A stretch of DNA of 7,568 nucleotides. Origin: a virus (Duplodnaviria; Heunggongvirae; Uroviricota; Caudoviricetes). Positions 2,253 through 7,568 of the stretch are shown here, piece by piece; position 1 is the first letter of the stretch; each line of letters starts with the position of its first letter. A model generated the notes under the pieces. It was not told where the DNA came from. It saw only the letters and a program-made list of their open reading frames with translations, and searched no databases. The translations under genes and the position numbers were made by a program. The stretch is from the IMG/VR virus record IMGVR_UViG_2671181118_000002; one strand, given 5' to 3'.

Positions 2253-2648
2253 ATGGATTTTGCAACTATCACAAGTAGCGTTGTGTTGAGTGCGTGTGTT
2301 GCTGGCGTGGTTTCGCTGGTTAATGGTGCCTGGCAACGCAAATCGGAACGAACCATTGAAGCGCAACGCCGGGCTGCTGAAGCCAGAGCAAAAATAAGAG
2401 AAATGGCTCTCACCCTCGCATTGAAAGAATGGGAGCTCCACCAAACCATATCGAAGGCAAAGGGGTATGGTGTCAGCGGCCCAGAAGTTTACGTCTTTCG
2501 ATACTTTCGTATGCTCAACCTGATGGAGGAAGACAAATTCACGATTGAAAATCTCAGACTGATCCAGTACGACTCCATGTGTGCTGTTGCAGCAATTCAG
2601 GCAGAGATCGAGCGATATCGGGAGAAAAACGGCCTCCCGATGCCATAA
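2253..2648 (+). CDS. Membrane-anchored protein of unknown function (N-terminal hydrophobic helix, then a charged helical domain); encoded antisense to the surrounding early operon
   Basis: Six-frame ORF. ATG at 2253 with AGAGGAGG 6-7 nt upstream. Residues ~5-26 (ITSSVVLSACVAGVVSLVNGAW) are hydrophobic and followed by QRKSER. Not recognised as any family I know. Confidence 0.65.
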   Translation: MDFATITSSVVLSACVAGVVSLVNGAWQRKSERTIEAQRRAAEARAKIREMALTLALKEWELHQTISKAKGYGVSGPEVYVFRYFRMLNLMEEDKFTIENLRLIQYDSMCAVAAIQAEIERYREKNGLPMP

Positions 2649-2652
2649 ACAA

Positions 2653-2874
2653 TCAGCGTTTTTCATCTTTCCAAATCCTCATATCAGGCTTGCGCCCAAT
2701 GAACCGACGAAGACAATTTAAAGTCCATCGGGTGAAGTAATCCCTGAAACCAAAGAGATACCAGGTGAACAGATTCACGATAAAATGTCCGGCCAGAGCC
2801 CCACCAATACCACAGGCAAGAACAGTAAAAAAATCAGGTAGATTCACAGCCCCCTCCGTCATTGTTAACGCCAT
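2653..2874 (-). CDS. Small membrane protein (64-73 aa) with a long hydrophobic segment and a basic C-terminal tail; function unknown
   Basis: Six-frame ORF. Possible starts: ATG at 2872-2874 (8 nt after the upstream stop, weak SD) or GTG at 2845-2847 preceded by GGAGG with a 5-nt spacer. Hydrophobic stretch FFTVLACGIGGALAGHFIVNLFTWYLFGF. Its stop lies 4 nt from the stop of the convergent 2253..2648 gene. Confidence 0.55.
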   Translation of the reverse strand: MALTMTEGAVNLPDFFTVLACGIGGALAGHFIVNLFTWYLFGFRDYFTRWTLNCLRRFIGRKPDMRIWKDEKR

Positions 2875-2882
2875 CCGTGCTT

Positions 2883-3308
2883 TTAGTGCATCACCACGGC
2901 ATTTCCTGCAGGGCCACCACGGTTCATCTGATTGAAACCGGCAATCGCCACTGCGACAAAATCATCAGCGTCTCTCACCAGTCGTTCCCGCGTCTCCACC
3001 AGCTCCCGAAAATAGGCTGAACTGTGGCTGCGCATTCGGGCCACCAGCAAAGGTGGCATTGCCTTTTCGATCGCTGGTAACAACGCCTGAATTTTTTCAA
3101 CAGCATCAGGGGTGTCTTTCTCTACCCAGCGGAAAATTTTCTGTGTATTGCGAGCCAGGGCTTCCGGATGGCTGTCGTCATACAGTTCAGGAAACGTTAT
3201 ACCCAACTCAAAATAAGCCTGGGTTATTCCAGCTGCTGGAACTTTTTCGCCATCAGGACGCGCCCAGGCATTCATCGCCATGCGGATGTGTTCATGCTTG
3301 ATTTTCAT
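2883..3308 (-). CDS. YdaT-like protein (prophage CII-analog family)
   Basis: Six-frame ORF. ATG at 3306-3308 preceded by AGGAG. Overlaps the end of the upstream cro-like gene by 17 nt. N-terminus MKIKHEHI and the position straight after a YdaS/DicC-like gene match the ydaS-ydaT arrangement of Rac-type prophages (recalled, not searched). Confidence 0.65.
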   Translation of the reverse strand: MKIKHEHIRMAMNAWARPDGEKVPAAGITQAYFELGITFPELYDDSHPEALARNTQKIFRWVEKDTPDAVEKIQALLPAIEKAMPPLLVARMRSHSSAYFRELVETRERLVRDADDFVAVAIAGFNQMNRGGPAGNAVVMH

Positions 3309-3573
3309 GAATCAAGCTCCTAGAAAGTGGTTGTGTTAACGTTTTGGTATCTTCCAGCTCGGGCCAAATATTCATCCAATCAAAAGGCCTTAGTTGCTGA
3401 CGTGTAACTTCACCATTACTGGCTCGCTCAATAAGGACACATAACGATGCCCCTAACACTTGACCTTTACTCAATGCCTTTCTTAGATAACCGATGCTGG
3501 TACCACACTCGCATGCAAACATACGCTGTTCATCTGACGAAAGAGAATTGAGAAATATTCTTAATTCTTCCAT
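3292..3573 (-). CDS. Cro-like HTH regulator of the YdaS/DicC family
   Basis: Six-frame ORF. ATG at 3571-3573 with AAGGAG 6 nt upstream. Divergent from the repressor gene. Contains an HTH-like segment (GTSIGYLRKALSKGQ) and the C-terminal motif GEVTRQQLRPFDWMNIWPEL, which I recall as typical of YdaS/DicC-type proteins. Confidence 0.75.
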   Translation of the reverse strand: MEELRIFLNSLSSDEQRMFACECGTSIGYLRKALSKGQVLGASLCVLIERASNGEVTRQQLRPFDWMNIWPELEDTKTLTQPLSRSLIHENQA

Positions 3574-3598
3574 AGCTACTCCTTAGTAAACACAGCAA

Positions 3599-3680
3599 AG
3601 AATACCCACAGGTAAACAAAAGTCAATACCCACAGGTTGTTTACCTTGCAGTAATCGCATCTATTATTTACCTATGGACA
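3599..3680. promoter_or_regulatory. Divergent promoter/operator region between the cro-like and repressor genes, with repeated TACC-N4-GGTA-type operator motifs
   Basis: Direct repeat AATACCCACAGGT at 3601-3613 and 3625-3637. 10-bp inverted repeat AGGTAAACAA (3611-3620) / TTGTTTACCT (3637-3646). Candidate leftward promoter on the minus strand: TTGACT (3621-3626), ~16-bp spacer, TATTCT (3599-3604). Candidate rightward promoter: TTTACC (3640-3645), 16-bp spacer, TATTAT (3662-3667), ending 6 nt before the repressor ATG, which suggests a leaderless mRNA. Confidence 0.5.
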
Positions 3681-4093
3681 AATATGAATTTAGACGACAG
3701 CAACTCATCAAAATTCGTGATGAGAAATGCGATGGTAAAGCGGTTAACGTGGCCAGAAAGATCGGGCGCGAGCCTTCTTATGTATCAAGAATGTTGTACC
3801 CAGAGGGGAAAAAGGGAAAAAAACGGATCGCTGATGATATGGTGGAGATTATCGAAGAGTCCTTTGGGTTACCCCGGGGATGGATGGATGGTATCGTTTC
3901 ATCATCAACGAACACAGCCTCCAGTTATGAAACAAGGGTTCTAACGCCACGACAACGTATTTTTTTAGATCTCTTAGACGAACTGCCAGAAAGTGAAGCG
4001 GATAACTTATTAAAAACTCTTGAAGAGAAAAAACAGTATTACAATATGATCTACGAAGAAATCCGTAAAAAGAAAGCACAAAACGCATCATAG
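3674..4093 (+). CDS. Prophage repressor (CI/DicA-like); the C-terminal region resembles DicA, the N-terminal DNA-binding region does not
   Basis: Six-frame ORF 139 aa, divergent from the cro-like gene. HTH-like segment AVNVARKIGREPSYVSRML. C-terminal LTPRQRIFLDLLDELPESEADNLLKTLEE resembles the DicA C-terminal pattern as I recall it. No Shine-Dalgarno upstream, consistent with a leaderless start. Confidence 0.7.
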   Translation: MDKYEFRRQQLIKIRDEKCDGKAVNVARKIGREPSYVSRMLYPEGKKGKKRIADDMVEIIEESFGLPRGWMDGIVSSSTNTASSYETRVLTPRQRIFLDLLDELPESEADNLLKTLEEKKQYYNMIYEEIRKKKAQNAS

Positions 4094-4135
4094 CTCACCA
4101 AACAACTAGTCACCAGTTAAGACACCGCAAAAAGT

Positions 4136-4176
4136 TACCCATGGGTATTTACTTTTTAAATACCTATGGGTATCCT
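4136..4176 (+). promoter_or_regulatory. Operator/promoter region upstream of the dicB-type operon: a perfect 12-bp palindrome and a near-copy of the same motif
   Basis: TACCCATGGGTA at 4136-4147 is its own reverse complement. TACCTATGGGTA at 4161-4172, 25 bp away. Same TACC-N4-GGTA motif as in the 3599-3680 region. Candidate -35 TTTACT (4148-4153) and -10 TATCCT (4171-4176). Confidence 0.45.
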
Positions 4177-4358
4177 TCTTTTCATACCAACCCACCCCGC
4201 CCCACAGAATGCAGGGCAATACTTCGAGTTACCAGGCAGTGGTCAGGGGTTAAGTAGCCAGCCCGAGGCGTAAGAACATGACGGCAGGGTTCAACTTTAA
4301 TAACTATGCAGCAGGTTTTTGTTCCGCTACCCCGGCGTTAAGGGGAAATGAGGTCAGC

Positions 4359-4514
4359 ATGGATACTATCGATCTTGGCAACAACGAATCTCTGGTGTAC
4401 GGCGTATTTCCAAACCAGGACGGCACGTTCACCGCAATGACGTATACCAAAAGCAAAACGTTTAAAACCGAAAATGGTGCCCGTCGCTGGCTGGAAAGAA
4501 ACTCAGGTGAGTGA
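4359..4514 (+). CDS. ydfA: YdfA-like small protein (51 aa), first gene of the dicB-type operon
   Basis: Within six-frame ORF 4278..4514. ATG at 4359-4361 preceded by GAGGT gives a 51-aa product (MDTIDLGNNESLVYGVFPNQDG...) matching the size and position of Qin ydfA. An upstream ATG at 4278 would give 78 aa. Confidence 0.65.
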   Translation: MDTIDLGNNESLVYGVFPNQDGTFTAMTYTKSKTFKTENGARRWLERNSGE

Positions 4515-4515
4515 T

Positions 4516-4644
4516 ATGGATTTCGACACAATCATGGAAAAGGCTTACGAAGAATACTTCGAAGGCCTTGCCGAAGGCGAAGAAGCTCTCAGCTTCAGTG
4601 AGTTTAAACAGGCGCTTTCCAGTTCGGCAAAATCTAACGGCTGA
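4516..4644 (+). CDS. ydfB: YdfB-like small protein (42 aa)
   Basis: Not in the ORF track (below its size cutoff); translated by hand. ATG at 4516-4518, 1 nt after the ydfA-like TGA, with AGGTGA upstream. Product MDFDTIMEKAYEEYFEGLAEGEEALSFSEFKQALSSSAKSNG; TGA at 4642-4644. Confidence 0.65.
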   Translation: MDFDTIMEKAYEEYFEGLAEGEEALSFSEFKQALSSSAKSNG

Positions 4645-4673
4645 TAAGCGAAACAGCACCGCGAGGAATCAGT

Positions 4674-4892
4674 ATGCAGAAACGAGAACCCGTCATCATC
4701 GCGCCAGACTATACCGATGATGAACTTTATGAGTGGATGCGCCAGAAAATTAATGCAGCGCAGGATCTGAAATGGGCTAATGAAGCCAGGGCTAAGCAGG
4801 CTGAAAATCTGTCCGCTCTGGAGCAGGATATCACCAGGCTGGAAAAAGCAGCGGCATTAAGCATTGCCAGAATGATTACATACCCGCGTTAA
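4674..4892 (+). CDS. ydfC: YdfC-like small protein (72 aa)
   Basis: Six-frame ORF. ATG at 4674 with GAGGAA and a 5-nt spacer. Size and position between ydfB-like and DicF match the Qin dicB operon. Confidence 0.65.
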   Translation: MQKREPVIIAPDYTDDELYEWMRQKINAAQDLKWANEARAKQAENLSALEQDITRLEKAAALSIARMITYPR

Positions 4893-5232
4893 TAGCTAAC
4901 CAACGAAGCTAAGGTTGGTAATTAAGGAGTTCTCCACGGGTGAGGTGGAGTGCGTGCGCCGGACACGGGTGAGCATCCGGCACTGACAGTTTACTGAAAG
5001 GATATTTCCATGAAAAGTCAGACCATAACGCGAAAGCGCACGGCGAGGTAGCTGGTTCATAGATAACCTGTCGTTAAATTTTCGTCGACCGTGCGCTTCC
5101 GGTTGTGGCACTCCGCGAAATGGCGCGGCGGTAAGTATGGCGGGGTTATTCCTTCCCCGTTGAGGACATCGGGTTGTCAGGTTGACCATACGCTTAAGTG
5201 ACAACCCCGCTGCAACGCCCTCTGTTATCAAT

Positions 5233-5285
5233 TTTCTGGTGACGTTTGGCGGTATCAGTTTTACTCCGTGGCTGCTCTGCCGCCC
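5233..5285 (+). ncRNA. dicF: DicF small regulatory RNA
   Basis: TTTCTGGTGACGTTTGGCGGTATCAGTTTTACTCCGTGGCTGCTCTGCCGCCC followed by TTTTT matches the DicF sequence as I recall it, possibly with one substitution. Lies between ydfC-like and dicB, as in the Qin prophage. Confidence 0.85.
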
Positions 5286-5290
5286 TTTTT
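5249..5290 (+). terminator. Intrinsic terminator-like 3' hairpin of DicF with T-run
   Basis: GGCGG (5249-5253) pairs with CCGCC (5280-5284) around an imperfect inner stem; TTTTT at 5286-5290. Confidence 0.5.
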
Positions 5291-5295
5291 AAAGT

Positions 5296-5442
5296 GAATT
5301 TTGTGATGCGGTGAATGCGGCTCAGCGCACGCGGAACAGTTAAAACCAAAAACAGTGTTATGGGTGGATTCTCTGTATCCGGCGTTAATTGTTAACTGGT
5401 TAACGTCACCTGGAGGCACCAGGCACCGCATCACAAAATTCA
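5296..5442 (+). repeat. 18-bp perfect long-range inverted repeat between the DicF 3' end and the dicB RBS; candidate RNase III processing stem
   Basis: GAATTTTGTGATGCGGTG at 5296-5313 and its exact reverse complement CACCGCATCACAAAATTC at 5425-5442. Confidence 0.5.
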
Positions 5443-5459
5443 TTGTTGAGGACGCGATA

Positions 5460-5648
5460 ATGGAAACGTTATTACCAAACGTTAATACGTCTGAAGGTTG
5501 TTTTGAAATTGGTGTCACTATCAGTAACCCTGTATTTACTGAAGATGCCATTAACAAGAGAAAACACGAACGGGAGTTATTAAATAAAATATGCATTCTT
5601 TCAATGCTGGCCCGTTTACGTCCGATACAAAAAGGATGCTGGCAATGA
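5460..5648 (+). CDS. dicB: DicB cell-division inhibitor (62 aa)
   Basis: Within six-frame ORF 5355..5648. ATG at 5460-5462 preceded by GAGGA gives METLLPNVNTSEGCFEIGVTISNPVFTEDAINKRKHERELLNKICILSMLARLRPIQKGCWQ, recognised as DicB. Directly downstream of DicF. Confidence 0.85.
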   Translation: METLLPNVNTSEGCFEIGVTISNPVFTEDAINKRKHERELLNKICILSMLARLRPIQKGCWQ

Positions 5649-5836
5649 ATACAGCATTTGCACTTGTTCTGACAGTTTTTCTTGTTTCCGGAGAGCCAGT
5701 TGATATTGCAGTCAGTGTTCACAGGACAATGCAGGAGTGTATGACTGCAGCAACCGAACAGAAAATTCCCGGTAACTGTTACCCGGTCGATAAAGTTATT
5801 CACCAGGATAATATCGAAATCCCGGCAGGTCTTTAA
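5645..5836 (+). CDS. ydfD: YdfD-like small membrane/lysis protein (63 aa)
   Basis: Within six-frame ORF 5591..5836. ATG at 5645-5647 overlaps the dicB TGA (ATGA). Product MNTAFALVLTVFLVSGEPVDIAVSVHRTMQECMTAATEQKIPGNCYPVDKVIHQDNIEIPAGL. Confidence 0.8.
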   Translation: MNTAFALVLTVFLVSGEPVDIAVSVHRTMQECMTAATEQKIPGNCYPVDKVIHQDNIEIPAGL

Positions 5837-5929
5837 AACAGTTCCGTAATAAATATCCGGTTTCATTCTTATATGCCAGCAATGGCAGGGATTTGTTCAT
5901 CCTTAAATCTGTCATGAGGTTAAAACAAA

Positions 5930-6868
5930 ATGAGTAAAGTCTTTATTTGCGCCGCCATTCCTGACGAACTGGCAACAAGGGAAGAAGGCGCTGTGGCTGT
6001 AGCCACAGCTATTGAAGCTGGCGACGAACGCCGTGCTCGAGCAAAATTTCACTGGCAATTCCTGGAACATTATCCGGCTGCTCAGGACTGCGCTTATAAA
6101 TTTATTATCTGCGAGGATAAACCTGGCATACCCCGCCCTGCCCTCGATTCATGGGATGCTGAATATATGCAGGAAAACCGCTGGGATGAGGATTCTGCTT
6201 CTTTTGTCCCGGTTGAGACTGAATCCGATCTGATGAACGTCACTTTTGACAAGCTGGCCCCTGAAGTACAGAACGCTCTCATGGTTAAGTTCGACACATG
6301 TGAAAACATCACCGTTGATATGGTTATTAGCGCACAGGAATTGTTGCAGGAAGACATGGCAACATTCAACGGACATATCGTTGAAGCGTTGATGAAAATG
6401 CCAGAAGTTAACGCCATGTATCCGGAGCTTAAGCTGCATGCCATCGGGTGGGTTAAGCATAAATGTAAGCCTGGTGCCAAATGGCCCGAAATTCAGGCAG
6501 AGATGCGCATCTGGAAAAAACGTCGCGAAGGTGAACGCAAGGAAACCGGAAAATACACGTCTGTTGTTGATCTCGCCCGCGCCAGAAGGTCATTGCTGCC
6601 ATTCATCGCGAATACAAGCAGACATGGAAAACACTGGATGACGAACTGGCCTACGCTCTCTGGCCTGGTGATGTGGATGCCGGAAACATTGACGGCAGCA
6701 TCCATCGCTGGGCAAAAAATGAAGTTATCGACAACGACCGCGAAGACTGGAAGCGTATCTCGGCATCAATGCGCAAACAGCCTGATGCCCTTCGCTACGA
6801 CCGCCAGACTATTTTTGGCCTTGTCCGTGAACGTCCGATCGACATTCACAAAGACCCTGTGGCACTGA
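5930..6868 (+). CDS. ydfE: YdfE-like prophage protein; only the first ~215 codons look like genuine coding sequence, after which the frame appears shifted (possible pseudogene or fusion)
   Basis: Six-frame ORF. ATG at 5930 with GAGG upstream. Translation is protein-like up to ...VVDLARAR (~6585); the remainder is W/M/H/T-rich and unnatural, while the -1 frame becomes open and protein-like from 6571. Confidence 0.55.
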   Translation: MSKVFICAAIPDELATREEGAVAVATAIEAGDERRARAKFHWQFLEHYPAAQDCAYKFIICEDKPGIPRPALDSWDAEYMQENRWDEDSASFVPVETESDLMNVTFDKLAPEVQNALMVKFDTCENITVDMVISAQELLQEDMATFNGHIVEALMKMPEVNAMYPELKLHAIGWVKHKCKPGAKWPEIQAEMRIWKKRREGERKETGKYTSVVDLARARRSLLPFIANTSRHGKHWMTNWPTLSGLVMWMPETLTAASIAGQKMKLSTTTAKTGSVSRHQCANSLMPFATTARLFLALSVNVRSTFTKTLWH

Positions 6869-7568
6869 ACAAATACATTACTGAATACCTGACTACAAAG
6901 GGCGTGTTTGAAGATGAAGGAAGAAATCAGAGCGCAACTGATACTCTCTCGTCGCCAGTACCAGAAACTGATGCAGTGGAAACGGCAATTCCGGACAACG
7001 AAAAAACCGAATGCAAAGTGGAAGTCGAACCATCTGTAGAGCGTGAGGGGCCGTTCTACTTCCTCTTCACCGACAAGGATAGCGAAAAATACGGTCGCGC
7101 AAACAAACTTTCTGGTCTGGAAAAAGCACTAGCCCTGGGAGCTACGGAAATCACAAAAGAGGAATACTTCGCACGTAAAAACGGCACGTACTCAGGTTCA
7201 CAACAAAATACTGGTGCATCTGACACGACCGCACAACCAGAGCCGGTAAAAGTTACCGCTGACGAAGTAAACAAAATTATGCAGGCAGCCAATATCAGCC
7301 AGCCTGACGCCGATAAGTTGCTTGCTGCATCACGTGGTGAATTTGTTGAAGGGATTAGTGACCCGAATGATCCGAAATGGGTTAAGGGGATCCAGACCCG
7401 CGATTCTGTGAACCAGAACCAGCATGAATCGGAACGGAACTACCAAAAAGCGGAACAAAACAGCACAAATGCGTTACAAAACGAGCCAGAAACGAAACAG
7501 CCTGAACCAGTGGCGCAACAGGAAGTGGAAAAAGTCTGCACCGCCTGCGGTCAGACCGGCGGCGGCAA
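6571..7568 (+). CDS. Long acidic ORF (at least 332 codons, 3' end beyond the window); either the frameshifted continuation of the ydfE-like gene or the N-terminal part of a larger early-region protein
   Basis: Frame with codons starting at 6571, 6574 and so on has no stop through 7568, shows E. coli-like codon use, and has no ATG with a Shine-Dalgarno near its 5' end (first ATG at 6769). Checked by hand codon by codon. Confidence 0.5.

Follow-up and report, generated by a model that had tools for sequence, protein, structure and literature searches.

The open reading frame (ORF) at 3674–4093 of IMG/VR virus record IMGVR_UViG_2671181118_000002, a 7,568-nucleotide (nt) stretch of Caudoviricetes DNA (hereafter the window), very probably encodes the CI-type maintenance repressor of a Qin/Tritos-like lambdoid prophage, built as a two-module chimera. 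Its DNA-binding head is of the type found in the cI repressor of phage mEp043, and its C-terminal tail is homologous to that of DicA from the Qin prophage. We confirmed the ORF on the plus strand as earlier described. The 139-amino acid (aa) product opens with MDKYEF and matches the PHROG 5736 profile ("transcriptional regulator") over its full length (residues 1–139 against profile positions 1–133, E = 4.4e-70). The gene occupies the slot of dicA in Qin: a Cro-like gene and a YdaT/CII-like gene diverge from it on one side, and the ydfA-ydfB-ydfC-dicF-dicB-ydfD operon lies on the other. The modules were delimited with an AlphaFold2 (AF2) model, its predicted local distance difference test (pLDDT) scores, and homology, as follows:

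3674–4093, plus strand: putative maintenance repressor gene in the CI/DicA position (139 aa, ATG start, stop included)
3674–3898, plus strand: N-terminal DNA-binding head, aa 1–75, a four-helix helix–turn–helix (HTH) of cI/Cro fold and mEp043-cI type (AF2, Foldseek, identity)
3899–3934, plus strand: disordered linker, aa 76–87, the joint of the two modules (pLDDT <50, homology boundaries)
3935–4090, plus strand: DicA-type C-terminal tail, aa 88–139, comprising a short helix, an LPESE turn and a long helix (AF2, identity, tail profile)

The initial annotation, made from the letters alone, had proposed that the C-terminal ~50 residues are DicA-like and that the N-terminal HTH region is not. Using the K-12 DicA and RacR sequences drawn from NC_000913, we obtained by BLASTP one significant alignment to DicA, between query residues 89–134 and DicA 84–129, with 15 of 46 positions identical (33%) and an E value of 1e-7 for this single comparison. 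The NCBIfam DicA model NF007257 matched residues 86–136 only (model positions 81–131, E = 2.8e-5), scoring 23.9 bits against the curated cut-off of 101 bits for full-length membership. The match between DicA and PHROG 5736 was confined to DicA 83–130 (E = 5.3e-9), and hhalign of the family alignment against DicA paired 90–138 with 85–133 only (E = 9.4e-6). None of these four methods aligned the N-terminal half with DicA. The LxxxELELLxLFxxLPESE helical tail of the DicA family is present in the repressor, and so is the family's placement between a divergent Cro-analogue gene and a downstream ydfA-dicF-dicB operon; the P22 C2-like HTH_3 N-terminal domain was not found by Pfam, BLASTP or hhalign. 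As judged from these alignments, the similarity to DicA is real, above chance and limited to the C-terminal part. The proposal therefore held, with BLASTP and three profile methods agreeing on residues of about 85–136 only; similarity, or lack of it, spread uniformly along the protein was looked for and was not the result. RacR (NCBIfam NF049929), also suggested for comparison, proved irrelevant, giving no BLASTP alignment better than E = 2.3 and no match to the tail profile.

The term "DicA-like" needs qualification. The tail (residues 88–139) is homologous to that of DicA but distant, and because the resemblance amounts to only 33%, the repressor is not a recent DicA derivative. Phage Tritos CI has the closest tail, at 72% identity. 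A chance or compositional match between charged helical C-termini, with no shared module, would fit the low identity (just 33% over 46 residues) and the nature of the region, in which E, K and L abound and one long helix is predicted. We find this scarcely credible, since four methods returned the same boundaries, with best E values of 1e-7 to 5e-9, and since the 72%-identical tail sits on the unrelated Tritos CI head and is encoded by 76%-identical DNA. An exhaustive search of 1.84 billion representative proteins with the tail profile further yielded 196 clusters at E ≤ 1e-3, 51 of them at E ≤ 1e-10, in which the tail forms, nearly always, the extreme C-terminus of HTH proteins of 120–180 aa and the motif LxxxxxxLLxLFxxLPESE is conserved. 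The chance-match explanation is effectively already refuted.

A word-indexed search with the same profile had returned only short fragments and was replaced by the exhaustive search as a census of architectures. A complete head was present in 120 of the 141 listed tail hits analysed (median length 138.5 aa), and in nearly all of these 120 the tail match ended within a few residues of the C-terminus. When the 120 proteins and the window protein were examined with Pfam, 78 of the 121 showed an HTH_3 head, and fewer showed YdaS-like, Phage_CI_repr or other HTH heads. Clustering of the heads placed 30 of the 120 with the Pfam-invisible head type of the window repressor. The tail homologues span Escherichia, Salmonella, Serratia and Yersinia.

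Relatives of the whole protein, sought among 5.8 billion proteins, gave a different picture for the head. The first ~75 residues are 70–85% identical to the N-termini of 221–242-aa LexA-family repressors with a Pfam Peptidase_S24 domain. With the halves compared separately, the head (1–75) was 76% identical to the cI of mEp043, a cultured coliphage, and 85% identical to the Salmonella S24 repressor P0047; the S24-type head MDKYE...GLPRGWMDG is thus present at 76–85% identity over 72–75 residues. Pfam confirmed Peptidase_S24 in mEp043 cI (228 aa), P0047 and P0041, and gave no such hit in the window repressor; at E ≤ 10, neither the whole protein nor either half matched any Pfam family. The head matched neither DicA nor Tritos CI. 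In the AF2 model (mean pLDDT 85.8), it forms helices at 3–18, 23–30, 34–40 and 54–63 with pLDDT >90, and Foldseek matched it to the heads of C.Esp1396I, HigA and lambda cI, with root-mean-square deviations (rmsd) of 2.2–3.5 Å over 66–73 columns. The predicted recognition helix, REPSYVSRMLY, recurs unchanged in mEp043 cI. The head had been described simply as different from that of DicA; it does differ, and beyond that it is a member of a defined family whose usual fusion partner is an S24 autocleavage domain.

Head homology stops near aa 74–75 and tail homology begins near aa 88–90, on either side of the disordered AF2 linker at aa 76–87, which answers the call for a domain boundary prediction. 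Proteins from Serratia, Yersinia and metagenomes that share 72–81% of the head have tails only 31–42% identical to that of the window repressor, and the tail showed no significant similarity to S24 proteins in the half-by-half comparison. At the DNA level, window positions 2894–3320 and 4190–7568 are 92–94% identical to Tritos, which is laid out alike overall, and the tail-coding segment 3977–4092 is 76% identical, while 3321–3976 (cro, the right operators OR, and the head) and 4093–4189 (the left operators OL) are unmatched. Because the best relative of the head has another C-terminus and the best relative of the tail has another head, the discordance of the modules is direct evidence, at the sequence level, of recombination between head and tail. 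The repressor is accordingly a mosaic, as first proposed, with discordant closest relatives of the mEp043-cI/S24 type for the head and Tritos CI for the tail. Its origin is the classical modular exchange of lambdoid phages, that is, ordinary module shuffling.

An ORF in an overlapping frame lies at window 3684–3944 (plus strand). The database proteins P0012–P0018 (135–136 aa) start there and then enter the repressor frame, and therefore frameshifted or mis-called repressor alleles exist in some E. coli assemblies. Such alleles, the 221–242-aa S24 repressors as closest relatives of the head, and the cryptic state of many such prophages could suggest that the gene is a truncated or frameshifted remnant of an S24-type cI, whose C-terminal part is non-functional read-through. 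This is extremely improbable, as the tail bears no similarity to S24 sequence, is conserved and confidently folded (pLDDT about 90), has homologues in all four of the genera named above, and also occurs in Tritos, a complete deposited phage genome with an intact phage tail-gene set.

In the AF2 model the tail consists of helices at 92–103 and 106–138. A second DNA-binding element, namely a RovA/SlyA-related winged-helix fragment in place of an oligomerisation or antirepressor-docking module, was suggested by the reported 29% identity between DicA 80–135 and RovA/SlyA 25–81 (Yun et al. 2012, PMC3441716). We could not reproduce this homology with profile methods: neither the tail nor DicA gave a MarR/SlyA Pfam hit at E ≤ 10, and a profile search of Protein Data Bank (PDB) sequences returned no MarR-family protein. 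Moreover, AF2 predicts two helices only, without a wing or β hairpin, and the operators co-vary with the head and not with the tail. We regard a winged-helix tail as very unlikely; the tail may serve in oligomerisation, in antirepressor docking or in both, with oligomerisation its presumed job. The hits to ADAR Z-alpha and limonene epoxide hydrolase in the PDB searches with the protein and the tail profile were at chance level and were discarded.

The predicted operator, TACC-N4-GGTA, is a 12-bp palindrome. Allowing one mismatch, the window contains seven sites against 1.43 expected, and none of 200 shuffles reached seven. Five of the seven form two groups, at 3603, 3627 and 3642 between the divergent genes and at 4136 and 4161 upstream of ydfA. 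Together with the promoter-like hexamers, including those resembling the right and left promoters (PR, PL) and the repressor maintenance promoter (PRM), they are arranged as follows (operators without strand):

3599–3626, minus strand: predicted PR-like promoter for the cro-like/ydaT operon, TTGACT, 16 nt, TATTCT (hexamer scan)
3603–3614: OR1-like operator TACCCACAGGTA, overlapping the -10/spacer of the leftward PR-like promoter
3627–3638: OR2-like operator TACCCACAGGTT, between both -35 elements
3640–3667, plus strand: predicted PRM-like promoter, TTTACC, 16 nt, TATTAT (hexamer scan)
3642–3653: OR3-like operator TACCTTGCAGTA, with one mismatch (perfect in prophage L001), overlapping the PRM-like -35/spacer
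4136–4147: OL-type operator TACCCATGGGTA, upstream of the dicB operon, aligning with the mEp043 OL pair
4148–4153 and 4171–4176: putative PL-like promoter and dicBp analogue, TTTACT and TATCCT (by eye)
4161–4172: OL-type operator TACCTATGGGTA, 25 bp after TACCCATGGGTA, overlapping the weak promoter-like element of the dicBp analogue

The immunity region of mEp043 contains TACC-N4-GGTA sites with equal spacing that align in register at OR and OL, the OR1-like TACCCACAGGTA being in register with mEp043 TACCTGTAGGTA. We fetched seven loci encoding the head, either with the tail (prophages L001 and L004 and the Yersinia-type contigs L008 and L009) or with S24 (mEp043 and the Salmonella-type contigs L010 and L011). 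All seven contained exactly four perfect sites (two OR and two OL), of which two stood at fixed positions before the ATG and the other two lay farther down, 25 bp from each other. No perfect site was present in Qin, Rac, Tritos or Gifsy-2. Since the four sites occur in every head locus with either C-terminus and in none of the others, the head, Cro and operators travel together, with the C-terminal module independent of them; the Cro-like protein of the window is 73% identical to mEp043 Cro. The initial annotation had envisaged a swap of the N-terminal region. The head was indeed exchanged, but not alone, as Cro and both operator sets moved with it. Qin has the same two-set architecture with another palindrome, GTTAG-N6-CTAAC-like (by eye), whose layout fits the published DicA operators at dicCp and dicBp (PMC10448788). 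The accompanying claim that such a swap shifts immunity specificity and keeps control of the dicB operon is supported by both the different operator motif and the retained position upstream of that operon, on sequence evidence. A promoter/terminator scan also called an intrinsic-terminator-like hairpin at 4136–4172; it corresponds to the inverted pair of OL-type palindromes and is probably spurious.

The promoter-like hexamers are arranged lambda-style: the 3642 site overlaps the PRM-like -35, and the 3627 site lies just upstream. The ATG at 3674 is 7 nt past the PRM-like -10, with no Shine-Dalgarno sequence, which predicts a leaderless repressor mRNA; mEp043 cI has the same -10-to-ATG geometry. 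For lambda cI and for paaR2 of CP-933P, leaderless mRNAs are established by experiment (PMC8630535).

We infer the following mode of action. A head dimer would bind the TACC-N4-GGTA operators. At the three OR-like sites, it would repress PR and possibly activate and then auto-repress the leaderless PRM, and at the two OL-type sites, 25 bp apart, it would cover the ydfA-dicF-dicB promoter, the PL/dicBp equivalent. The cro/ydaT operon and the ydfA-dicF-dicB operon would thereby come under its repression, probably along with autoregulation. The tail would stand in for the S24 autocleavage/dimerisation domain of the head's closest relatives and serve in oligomerisation. At 139 aa and without an AG or CG dipeptide, the protein has the size and the lack of a cleavage site that characterise the Gifsy GfoR/GtgR and DicA class. 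In the absence of an S24 domain and an Ala-Gly site, RecA would be unable to inactivate it directly; it is most likely a non-cleavable CI analogue, for which direct RecA-dependent induction should be lost.

DicA, too, is a short, non-cleavable analogue of CI, and the antirepressor Rem lifts its repression (PMC10448788). The Gifsy repressors are uncleaved and inactivated by LexA-controlled antirepressors, and Lemire et al. group DicA with them (PMC3121763). By analogy, the window repressor is probably controlled by an antirepressor, and derepression would require such a protein (compare Rem for DicA and GftA for the Gifsy repressors) or the collapse of a bistable switch of Cro/CI type. In the slot flanked by the DUF968 gene and hokD, which carries Rem in K-12 Qin, elements whose repressor has the window/Tritos-type tail encode an unrelated conserved 90–92-aa phrog_1212 protein, on the minus strand of L001 (5445–5723), L004 (17063–17335) and the Tritos locus L005 (7886–8164). 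It is 91% identical between Tritos and L001, and its linkage makes it a candidate for the matching antirepressor. Near the same slot, Tritos encodes an ImmA/IrrE-type metallopeptidase with an XRE HTH domain (L005, 8271–9416, minus strand). ImmA/IrrE-type proteases cleave non-S24 repressors in other elements, and this one could provide an alternative derepression route for tail-type repressors.

As a possibility that we consider doubtful, the tail may be a portable "induction-mode" cassette: putting it in place of S24 would turn an SOS-autocleavable repressor into one removed by a trans-acting antirepressor that recognises the tail and not the head, with operator specificity unchanged. If so, elements with different immunity and the same tail subtype, such as the window element and Tritos, would be co-induced by one antirepressor. 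Conversely, elements with the same immunity and different C-termini, such as the window element and mEp043-type phages, would be homo-immune and induced by different signals.

Several observations weigh against the assignment of a chimeric, antirepressor-controlled repressor or against parts of it. Neither a Rem homologue nor a LexA box was detected by tblastn and a LexA-box scan, a hunt that covered prophages L001 and L004 and the window and left the rest of the genome unsearched. The putative PL-like promoter agrees with the consensus at only 8 of 12 positions, below the scan threshold. The AF2 model, from which the tail helices are taken, is a monomer, and the PDB sequence search with the tail profile returned no solved structure for the tail. 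A neighbour-joining tree in which tail-bearing heads are dispersed among S24 types hints at repeated independent head/C-terminus swaps; it is based on 75 residues, carries no support values and is poorly resolved.

The protein might instead be mainly a host-domesticated silencer of the toxic dicB/dicF operon, or antitoxin-like, a role that Qin DicA plays in a cryptic prophage (PMC10448788) and that would suit a defective copy, the recE-like exonuclease gene of the window appearing frameshifted. We consider this unlikely. The cI of the cultured temperate phage mEp043 uses the same head and operator set, the CI of Tritos, whose deposited genome is complete, has the same tail, and the OR/OL architecture is the standard immunity layout. 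Silencing and immunity roles are, moreover, not mutually exclusive, and we retain the immunity repressor as the preferred assignment.

The genes around the repressor are as follows:

2883–3308, minus strand: YdaT family/CII-like activator (Pfam PF06254; phrog_163 "CII-like transcriptional activator", E = 3e-44)
3292–3573, minus strand: Cro analogue, 93 aa, YdaS-like HTH of mEp043-Cro type (weak Pfam YdaS hit, phrog_35)
4359–4514, plus strand: ydfA homologue (DUF1391), first gene of the dicB operon (Pfam PF07151, E = 5.5e-28)
5234–5285, plus strand: DicF small RNA (Rfam RF00039, 75 bits)
5460–5648, plus strand: dicB, 62 aa (translation within ORF 5355–5648; 96% DNA identity to the Qin dicB region)

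YdaT serves as a CII analogue in CP-933P (PMC8630535). The DicF small RNA sits inside the operon predicted to be repressor-controlled. DNA homology to Qin extends from window 4321 to 6653 (96%), and the immunity region up to 4320 is without homology to it. Two short islands of high identity to Rac DNA flank the immunity cassette, at 3285–3314 (97%, 30 bp, the ydaS/ydaT junction) and at 4183–4346 (87%, 164 bp, downstream of racR), and look like conserved boundary sequences at which lambdoid modules recombine. The 312-aa ORF at 5930–6868 (plus strand) matches only positions 1–220 of the 823-aa recE-like exonuclease family phrog_2082 and then runs out of frame. This suggests that the exonuclease gene is frameshifted near window 6590 and that the prophage copy is partly decayed. 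A segment at 1664–2893 has no DNA match in Tritos or L001, with flanks that match at ~92–95%. It holds a 131-aa ORF at 2253–2648 (plus strand; full-length match to phrog_36733, E = 1e-91) and a 73-aa hydrophobic ORF at 2653–2874 (minus strand) without a family, and could represent a moron that entered between the replication gene and ydaT.

The lambdoid prophage to which the window belongs is very common in E. coli. Of 5426 complete E. coli genomes, 822 contained 80% or more of a 1.1-kb query around the repressor gene, and in a megablast of the whole window no complete E. coli genome matched more than 82% of it. RefSeq E. coli genomes label the gene "hypothetical protein". Hundreds of genomes carry that label, O157-, O145- and O103-type strains among them, and it can now give way to the name of prophage repressor, with predicted operators and a predicted mEp043-like immunity type attached. 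The occurrence of one head and operator set with two C-terminal modules, S24 or the DicA-type tail, is a natural experiment on tail function. The tail itself is an unannotated module that merits a domain definition, because it turns up in about 200 protein clusters and yet lacks both a Pfam family and a solved structure. These findings leave current views intact, as mosaicism among lambdoid phages and short repressors under antirepressor control are both already well established.

Among known systems, the repressor Rep of Salmonella phage SPC32H (PDB 5d50/5d4z) and PaaR2 of CP-933P are non-S24 CI analogues, each combining an HTH head with an oligomerising helical region at the C-terminus. They resemble the window repressor in architecture alone, no sequence similarity having been detected. 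Foldseek ranked highest overall the non-cleavable SPC32H repressor as solved in complex with its antirepressor (5d50, E = 8e-4), with a poor global superposition (rmsd 17 Å over 175 columns). PaaR2 is additionally leaderless and paired with YdaS/YdaT (PMC8630535). The Salmonella Gifsy repressors GfoR/GtgR are also short (138 aa) and uncleaved. GtgR of Gifsy-2 has the first tail helix and the LP(E) motif in common with the window repressor, scoring 20.7 bits against the tail profile over the first half only, but the Gifsy repressors have another head, a diverged distal tail and LexA-regulated antirepressors.

DicA of Qin is similar in its slot, between a divergent Cro analogue and the ydfA-dicF-dicB operon, in its size (135 versus 139 aa), in the lack of S24, in its homologous tail (33%) and in two palindromic operator sets at equivalent positions. 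It differs in its P22 C2-like HTH_3 head (E = 8e-20 to the C2 N-terminal domain), which cannot be aligned with the window head, in its operators (GTTAG-N6-CTAAC-like against TACC-N4-GGTA), in DicC, which is unrelated to the window Cro, and in the proven antirepressor Rem, which is absent from the two related prophages examined. DicA has itself been noted as a chimera of a P22 C2-like head (59% identity) and an unrelated C-terminus (PMC3441716), and our comparison with P22 C2 confirmed this. mEp043 cI and its S24 relatives (P0031, P0036, P0047, P0064 and others) agree with the window repressor in the head (76–85%) and in operator number, spacing and register; they differ in being 221–242 aa long with Peptidase_S24, in place of which the window repressor has a 52-aa DicA-type tail. 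Tritos CI (TRITO_33) differs in its HTH_3 head (Pfam E = 1.8e-9) and in the Cro beside it, neither of which is related to its window counterpart, and in the lack of TACC-N4-GGTA sites in Tritos. It agrees in length (139 aa), in a tail 72% identical in protein and 76% in DNA, and in flanks 92–94% identical on the ydaT and dicB-operon sides. Most likely, the window repressor adds a nameable new member to the short non-cleavable lambdoid repressors, a class already known.

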